A DNA stretch of 64,000 bases from Eledone cirrhosa (Eukaryota). The stretch covers positions 24,862,001-24,926,000 of the forward strand of contig OZ024763.1 of NCBI GenBank assembly GCA_964016885.1, read 5' to 3'. A program made the translations under genes and the position numbers. Positions 13,651-14,395 of the stretch are shown piece after piece. The notes beneath the pieces are model-generated. The model had not been told where the DNA came from. It worked only from the letters and a program-made list of their open reading frames with translations, and did not search any database. Each line of letters starts with the position of its first letter. Within the stretch, counting starts at the first letter, position 1.

Positions 13651-13693
13651 CAATATATATATATAATGTATAATAAACAATACAATATAATTA

Positions 13694-13761
13694 CCTCATT
13701 ACCAGCCGTTTCCCGATTAAGACGAATACGAAAAATGTCCTAATTCGTTCGTCGGACAAGG
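13694..13761 (-). ncRNA. Type I hammerhead ribozyme motif, U4C core variant
   Basis: Minus strand reads CCTTGT-CCGACGA-A-CGAATTAGGAC...GTCTTAATCG-G-GAAAC-GGCTG-GTA-ATGAGG; stem I CCTTGT/ATGAGG (with G-U), stem II ~10 bp, GUA site. Confidence 0.65.
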
Positions 13762-14233
13762 CAGTAAGATAAATAGCTCAATGTAATAACATCAGTTGTT
13801 CTACAGAGAAGTTATATAGTTATTTTAATTTTGATTTTGATTTTGAATTTGAATTGCTGTACAAAAATAGTTTAGTATAATATATGTCACGCCACTGTAC
13901 ATCAATATATATAATATTAAGGATACTATTTATGGTTATGTATATATTAAAACTGTTTGTAGTTATGTATATTTAAACCTTAAACAGTGAAGGTCAGTAA
14001 TTTATTACTACCTTATTACCAGTAAGATAAATAGCTCAATGTAATAACATCAGTTGTTCTACAGAGCAGTTATATAGTAATTAATTTTGATTTTGATTTT
14101 GAATTTGAATTGCTGTACGAAAATAGTATAGTATAATATATGTCACGCCACTTTACATCAATATATATATATATGTATCTGTATATCTCTTGCGTTGGAA
14201 AGGAGGTCAATTATATGTACAAACATTGAAAAA

Positions 14234-14280
14234 TGCTCCGAAGACCTCAAACCTAGGTTTGGATGAAACAATTGTAAGTG
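14234..14280 (+). ncRNA. Minimal type I hammerhead ribozyme motif, U4C core variant
   Basis: TGCT-CCGAAGA-CCTCAAAC-CTAG-GTTTGGAT-GAAAC-AATT-GTA-AGTG followed by AATAAA; palindromic stem III ACAATTGT. Confidence 0.6.
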
Positions 14281-14395
14281 AATAAATGCTTTGAACATAG
14301 CTTTGATTCTTGTGAATTCTCTCTCGCTGTCTCTCTCTCTCTCTATATATATATACACATATATAGAGATAGGTAGATAGATGGATGGAGAGATG

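Follow-up and report, generated by a model that had tools for sequence, protein, structure and literature searches.

Back-to-back 3′ ends of two Hydra-type Penelope-like element families with CCGA-core hammerhead motifs at a locus of Eledone cirrhosa

Two hammerhead motifs on opposite strands

The window analysed here is a 64,000-nucleotide stretch of the Eledone cirrhosa genome (contig OZ024763.1, positions 24,862,001 to 24,926,000, forward strand), and all positions without a locus name refer to it. TA/TG repeats abound in this 3.0-Gb genome. At the locus under study, a left part of 100 bp, consisting of the inverted 3′ end of a Penelope-like element (PLE) family designated B, is followed by a right part of 415 bp, consisting of a truncated 3′ end of family A together with an inverted piece of its 5′ UTR. 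The features of the locus and its relatives in the window are as follows.

13664..13763, minus strand: 3′ end of Hydra-type PLE family B, 5′-truncated at the base of stem I; assigned from sequence, with GIY-YIG about 1.6 kb upstream in long copies
13762..13917, no strand: partial local duplicate of 14020-14174 (part of the inverted tail plus the start of the direct part of family A), 95% identity
13905..14082, minus strand: inverted "tail" of family A, equivalent to the 5′ UTR of the full-length element (it precedes the ORF in long copy L065), with a GCTC...GAGC hairpin inside
14081..14320, plus strand: 5′-truncated 3′ end (pseudo-LTR) of Hydra-type PLE family A, then (TC)n/(TA)n
14234..14280, plus strand: minimal type I hammerhead motif with a CCGAAGA core, the base of stem II damaged in this copy
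8129..8760, no strand: duplicate of the whole locus, about 98% identical, with flank in common and both motifs broken, adjoining an assembly gap
55586..55835, plus strand: stub of family C, a sister of A, made of an inverted tail and a truncated 3′ end
About 55586-55663, minus strand: inverted tail part of the family-C stub
55748-55794, plus strand: single hammerhead motif of the family-C stub, core CCGATGA at 55752-55758

Read from the sequence, the minus-strand motif is a type I hammerhead in which stem I is formed by 13756-13763 with 13692-13699, the core CCGACGA lies at 13749-13755, stem II is long, and GAAA and GUA occupy 13709-13712 and 13700-13702, respectively. In the plus-strand motif the core CCGAAGA is found at 14238-14244, GAAA at 14265-14268 and GUA at 14274-14276, and stem III with its loop is the palindromic ACAATTGT, which is of the dimer type. 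Cleavage is predicted after GUA (13700) on the minus strand and after 14276 on the plus strand. A preliminary description of this DNA had reported an outward-facing pair of motifs on opposite strands, separated by about 470 nt, together with an internal direct repeat and the absence of an ORF, and each of these points is borne out. Specifically, the repeat pairs 13762-13917 with 14020-14174 at 95% identity over 155 bp, and the longest Met-started frame of the unit spans 46 codons.

Both motifs of the locus carry private damage. The A copy differs from most copies at the first two letters of stem II, and the B copy has stem II and stem III letters unlike those of most family-B copies. When folded to minimum energy, the window copies do not adopt the hammerhead structure, the core being paired away. 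An Rfam check for hammerheads, proposed in the preliminary description, recognised neither motif region at E values up to 10. When Rfam was run over the whole window, microsatellite matches to miRNA models swamped the output, and a repeat search of the window returned microsatellites only.

Two further sequence features were observed within the family-A parts: a GTAAGT donor-like motif at 14274-14279 on the plus strand, which overlaps the family-A cleavage site, and a branch-point/acceptor-like motif in the tail at 13977-14000 on the minus strand, which is conserved in A and C. Tandem copies might contain a 5′-UTR intron; the donor is not conserved in C. Elsewhere in the window, 46980-47085 is a near-perfect palindrome of 106 nt, and a similar stem occurs within a CUGAUGA hammerhead-like motif of another locus (L085).

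Source families and the C4 core

Long copies of family A are about 4.1 kb (about 4110-8234 in L065), and in L065 the tail sequence comes first, then broken ORF pieces with RWR, DKT, YRDD, a CxC linker and YIG, and finally the hammerhead after a long 3′ UTR. Long family-B copies, L073 among them, show RWK, DKT, YRDD, CxCX5C and YVG, about 1.6 kb upstream of the motif. The broken ORFs of L065 and L073 both present a reverse transcriptase followed by a C-terminal GIY-YIG endonuclease, the motif order of Hydra-clade PLEs. The RWK motif reads MRWKAL in B and VRWRTF in A, and DKG is replaced by DKT in both (ADKT in A, SDKT in B). The CxCX5C linker was found as CNCRSNRTC (L064), CNCRSSRTC (L146) and CSCRVKSEC (L073), no CCHH lies between GIY and YIG, with at most one Cys between the two motifs, and insertion into (TA)n is seen at the 3′ ends of family copies. 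The length of family A exceeds the "generally <3 kb" given for Hydra elements, which is a tendency and not diagnostic. A Pfam search with five ORF pieces gave no significant reverse transcriptase or GIY-YIG match.

At the level of the endonuclease, A and B are only about 32-40% identical, and C is about 76% identical to A. By these sequence motifs, A and B are separate high-copy Hydra-clade PLE families, a placement made with the motifs of PMC8557442 and not with a tree that includes published elements. In a weakly resolved endonuclease tree of 15 local rows, A, A2, C and E group together (98/98), and this tree cannot tell single from multiple origins of the cytidine at core position 4 (C4, the U4C change from CUGANGA to CCGANGA). 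Two further families with a C4 core and a short stem II were also encountered, one (L128-L139, L147) whose linked Hydra-type endonuclease shares about 40-44% identity with the family-A enzyme and another represented by L142-L144.

The C4 core is the majority state in A, C, B and several sister subfamilies. With one common pattern for families A and C, the genome holds 1,156 CCGA matches versus 95 CUGA and 44 CCAA, and among the first 100 listed of 994 family-B matches a hand count gave 69 CCGA, 25 CUGA and 1 CCAA; the canonical CUGANGA core is accordingly not the majority in these PLE motifs. A looser pattern with a spacer of 20-21 nt returned 11,401 CCGA matches (control 2,332), of which the first 100 listed belong almost entirely to the A clade, and the CUGA version of the same pattern returned 6,057 (control 1,146), those listed coming mostly from other families and a tandem array. 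On these pattern counts, about 10,000 hammerhead-shaped motifs of the genome carry U4C. At spacers of 11-19 nt, CUGA prevails with 14,131 matches versus 827 for CCGA, and U4C as a trait of the whole genome was rejected on this count; C4 instead marks particular lineages. Forty loci taken from the list of 827 comprise sister subfamilies together with two more distant families that combine C4 with different paired stems. Position 14239 showed no other letter in contigs of three runs under other organism labels, and one loose end showed a CUGA relative; as the shares are small, this carries no weight. Canonical motifs occur in tandem form as well: a 310-bp tandem array (L074, C1:278.71 Mb) carries a CUGAUGA hammerhead in each unit, with 14 copies on both strands in a retrozyme-like manner, and an array with an 81-bp period (G000:C1:19,336,800-19,365,200) contains many CUGANGA...GAAAC matches, identified by pattern only.

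Within family B, a diagnostic loop is present in 18 of 21 CUGA copies versus 2 of 20 C4 copies, and U4 and C4 copies cluster in a family-B tree of 34 of 42 rows (the 8 rows lacking an intact upstream region were left out), which gives no direction for the change. Together, the loop and the clustering indicate that active source elements of B carried both letters. CpG decay as the source of all CUGA copies in B was rejected, given 25 CUGA versus 1 CCAA among the 100 listed and the linked loop; for A and C it is doubtful (95 CUGA versus 44 CCAA). U4C had been put forward as a fixed trait rather than decay. Inheritance from source elements stands, as judged by the ratio of 1,156 to 95 and the covarying stems, but the trait is not fixed, since the U4 subfamily of B makes up about 25% of the listed copies.

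With respect to structure, the core of the A-clade motifs is flanked by stems I-III, and loop 3 is palindromic. Among 24 A-clade C4 sequences, 90.7% of cells were paired (slid controls 22-43%) and two-sided changes occurred in 6 of 13 pairs. These sequences were chosen by patterns requiring CCGA and GAAAC, a short-spacer search supplied 15 of them, deletion variants included, and relatedness can beat a shuffle control without any structure. The covariation check proposed for these stems thus came out in favour of pairing, and we take it as support for the structure, short of proof. Family-B stems were read from near-identical copies, without covariation.

U4C considerably lowers hammerhead activity in vitro (PMC3088659), a viroid with this change stays infectious (Ambros and Flores 1998, as cited in PMC3088659), and minimal PLE motifs are described as cutting slowly, as dimers (PMC4209133; PMC6765202). 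For an Anolis element, PMC11167929 reports that cutting needs protein and is dispensable for insertion in vitro. In our view, the C4 hammerheads most likely fold and cut slowly, either as dimers or with protein help, and such slow, assisted cutting would not be rate-limiting for transposition, so that source elements with U4 and with C4 could both spread. A further-reaching proposal is that a branch of Hydra retrotransposons kept an active C4 hammerhead in about 10,000 copies belonging to six or more diverged subfamilies, perhaps by a U-turn with protonated cytidine or by help from the element's protein, with U4C acting as a tuned slow switch and CUGA-based searches missing a large ribozyme class. 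We regard this as plausible, if somewhat short of probable. In a U-turn, U can give way to protonated C, and U-turn RNAs include the hammerhead (PMC4105743); applying this to the C4 motifs is our inference.

The main rival to slow, assisted cutting is that the C4 motifs are catalytically dead relics, which are either kept only because the hairpin has a structural or protein-binding role or are passengers of successful source elements. The in vitro effect of U4C fits this account, as do the Anolis results, in which ribozyme-dead mutants insert unimpaired in vitro and no RNA ends were seen at the cleavage site (PMC11167929), and the spread of both the U4 and the C4 subfamilies of B. Against it, diverged subfamilies retain the palindromic loop 3, the G-U-H site and the pairing of stems I and II (the core letters being partly imposed by the search), and the U4C viroid remains infectious. 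Loss of catalysis is a serious possibility, though in our judgement the less probable reading, and we favour slow cutting that does not limit transposition.

Probable origin of the B-A junction

The B-A locus is very probably a single chimera, in which the 3′ ends of two Hydra-type PLEs lie back to back in a TA tract, each with its own hammerhead motif, likely as a result of ordinary inverted 5′-truncated insertion and a subsequent local duplication. With one mismatch allowed, a 27-nt pattern spanning the B-A junction had 2 matches in the 3.0-Gb genome, both within the window; searching with the ends separately gave 2,076 first-look candidates for A and 1,094 for B (2,415 for family C). The family-B end was found at 0 of 28 other family-A loci, and family A at 0 of 29 and 0 of 40 other B loci, apart from short simple-repeat matches.

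The second copy at 8129-8760, cited earlier as another instance of the unit, does exist, but it is not an independent insertion. It has GUG at the cleavage site of one motif and a CCGAAGC core in the other, it adjoins a gap of 200 N (9132-9331), and the downstream flank and private changes are common to both window copies, which points to one event followed by segmental, local or assembly duplication. The sequence past this copy (8760-9331) folds back on itself and then enters the gap, and the copy may be an assembly duplication. The linkage that had been claimed for 55615-55835 is not present there: no family-B match occurs in any of 30 family-C loci, the stub has one hammerhead only, and the motif cited at 55.6 kb is part of the inverted tail, its likeness to the family-B hammerhead being limited to 13 nt of the 3′ arm.

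The arrangement itself follows what is known of these elements. The 5′-UTR piece directly follows the 3′ end as a tail in 12 of 28 other A loci, and it is inverted at the 5′ junction, as in the window, in L007, L009, L016, L021 and L082. Among the first 100 listed A and C motifs, 16 neighbouring pairs lie within 6 kb of each other, and 15 of these face outward. Hammerhead pairs of PLEs on opposite strands, 100-700 bp apart, were reported in 2014 (PMC4209133), inverted 5′-truncated copies and one-sided tails are standard for PLEs (PMC8557442), and tails have been explained by internal initiation of reverse transcription (PMC11167929). The sole unusual point of the arrangement is that its two arms come from different families; the back-to-back layout is already known.

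In terms of mechanism, the element's protein would prime copying at either of two AT-rich sites within a tandem transcript, the tail being included or not, and an inverted short copy would then be laid down beside the direct one. The 155-bp repeat likely arose by unequal exchange between two TA runs, and B was likely joined to the repeat by deletion or template switch at a 2-nt overlap, the order of these events at the junction not being readable from one locus. The duplicate at 13762..13917 meets family B at a 2-nt CA overlap, and no TA run separates B from the A tail. We also observed a GCTC...GAGC hairpin, identified by eye, which in A follows closely on each of the two points at which copies end and in B and C on the first of them (minus strand of the window at 14020-14075; L065 4251-4285); it may mark the start of reverse transcription.

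An alternative is that both arms were made in one insertion event, during which the Hydra reverse transcriptase switched from a family-A to a family-B template; the two arms of one insertion could then come from unrelated families. The 2-nt overlap and the missing TA run are in keeping with such a switch, both halves are 94-98% identical to their nearest relatives, and the B piece stops at the base of stem I, as do several other truncated B copies. There is one example only, however, and nesting of unrelated Hydra families within one TA tract is frequent (L052, L070, L082), so that side-by-side insertion plus a deletion explains the junction equally well. We consider a one-event template switch unlikely, and side-by-side insertion in one TA tract with deletion at the 2-nt overlap likelier. 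Copies of family B truncated at the base of stem I comprise L152, L176, L177, L186, L038, L041, L056 and the window copy (13763); this base is possibly a stop or switch hotspot in family B, although a search pattern beginning at this point makes the sample biased.

The preliminary description had interpreted the unit as an ambisense, non-autonomous, ribozyme-bearing mobile family. That the locus is such an element, viroid- or retrozyme-like and replicating or moving as one unit with a ribozyme for each polarity, would accommodate the opposite-strand motifs, the lack of an ORF and the two copies in the window, but it is largely refuted and almost certainly wrong, as the junction is confined to a single locus, the halves are unlinked in 97 other loci and are both ends of protein-coding PLEs, the second copy has the same flanks and two broken motifs, the 55.6-kb relative carries one motif, and the locus is not tandem, unlike retrozymes (PMC7229834).

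Comparison with known systems

Families A and B resemble the Hydra-clade PLEs described by Craig et al. 2021 (PMC8557442) in their RWK-like and DKT motifs, the CxCX5C linker and a GIY-YIG that is C-terminal and lacks CCHH, as well as in (TA)n targets, inverted 5′-truncated copies and a tail. The published Hydra motifs and the families here also have in common a type I hammerhead whose stem II bears one additional letter on either side. The differences lie in size and in the core: family A reaches about 4.1 kb and has a long 3′ UTR, tails measure about 75-180 nt here versus 30-40 in published Hydra elements, and the core is CUGA in all 26 rows of File S2 of that paper, which were obtained with a canonical descriptor, whereas it is mostly CCGA in the families here.

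The minimal hammerheads in the pseudo-LTRs of metazoan PLEs (Cervera and de la Pena 2014, PMC4209133) are alike in their long stem II, short stem I and palindromic stem III/loop 3, and likewise occur in dispersed truncated copies and in opposite-strand pairs 100-700 bp apart. The core variant given there is U3-A8, and no U4C or CCGA core was found in the text and supplements searched. Animal non-LTR retrozymes (PMC7229834; bioRxiv 10.64898/2026.07.22.740005) share with the locus a non-coding character, a type I hammerhead and derivation from PLEs. They are described as head-to-tail tandem monomers, each with a hammerhead, which is not the layout of the B-A locus, a back-to-back fusion of two families that has not spread.

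Our literature search for U4C found it only in PMC3088659 and not in PLEs; C4 cores may already be described by Lunse et al. 2017, which deals with variants of PLE hammerheads. C4 as the majority core of a PLE lineage did not appear in the literature searched, whereas the back-to-back arrangement is known. These motifs bear on what Penelope hammerheads do, given that ribozyme-dead RNA inserts in vitro (PMC11167929): a lineage at thousands of copies with a core change that weakens cutting suggests that fast cleavage is unneeded or C4 tolerated. The naturally occurring U4 and C4 subfamilies of B, whose backgrounds are nearly identical, allow a clean comparison, and searches with CUGA-only descriptors would pass over a large part of the hammerheads in this genome. 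The closest parallel to the core itself is the natural U4C viroid hammerhead (Ambros and Flores 1998, via PMC3088659), which has the same change; as described there, it is a rare variant with tertiary contacts, whereas here C4 is a majority state in about 10,000 minimal motifs of a genome.
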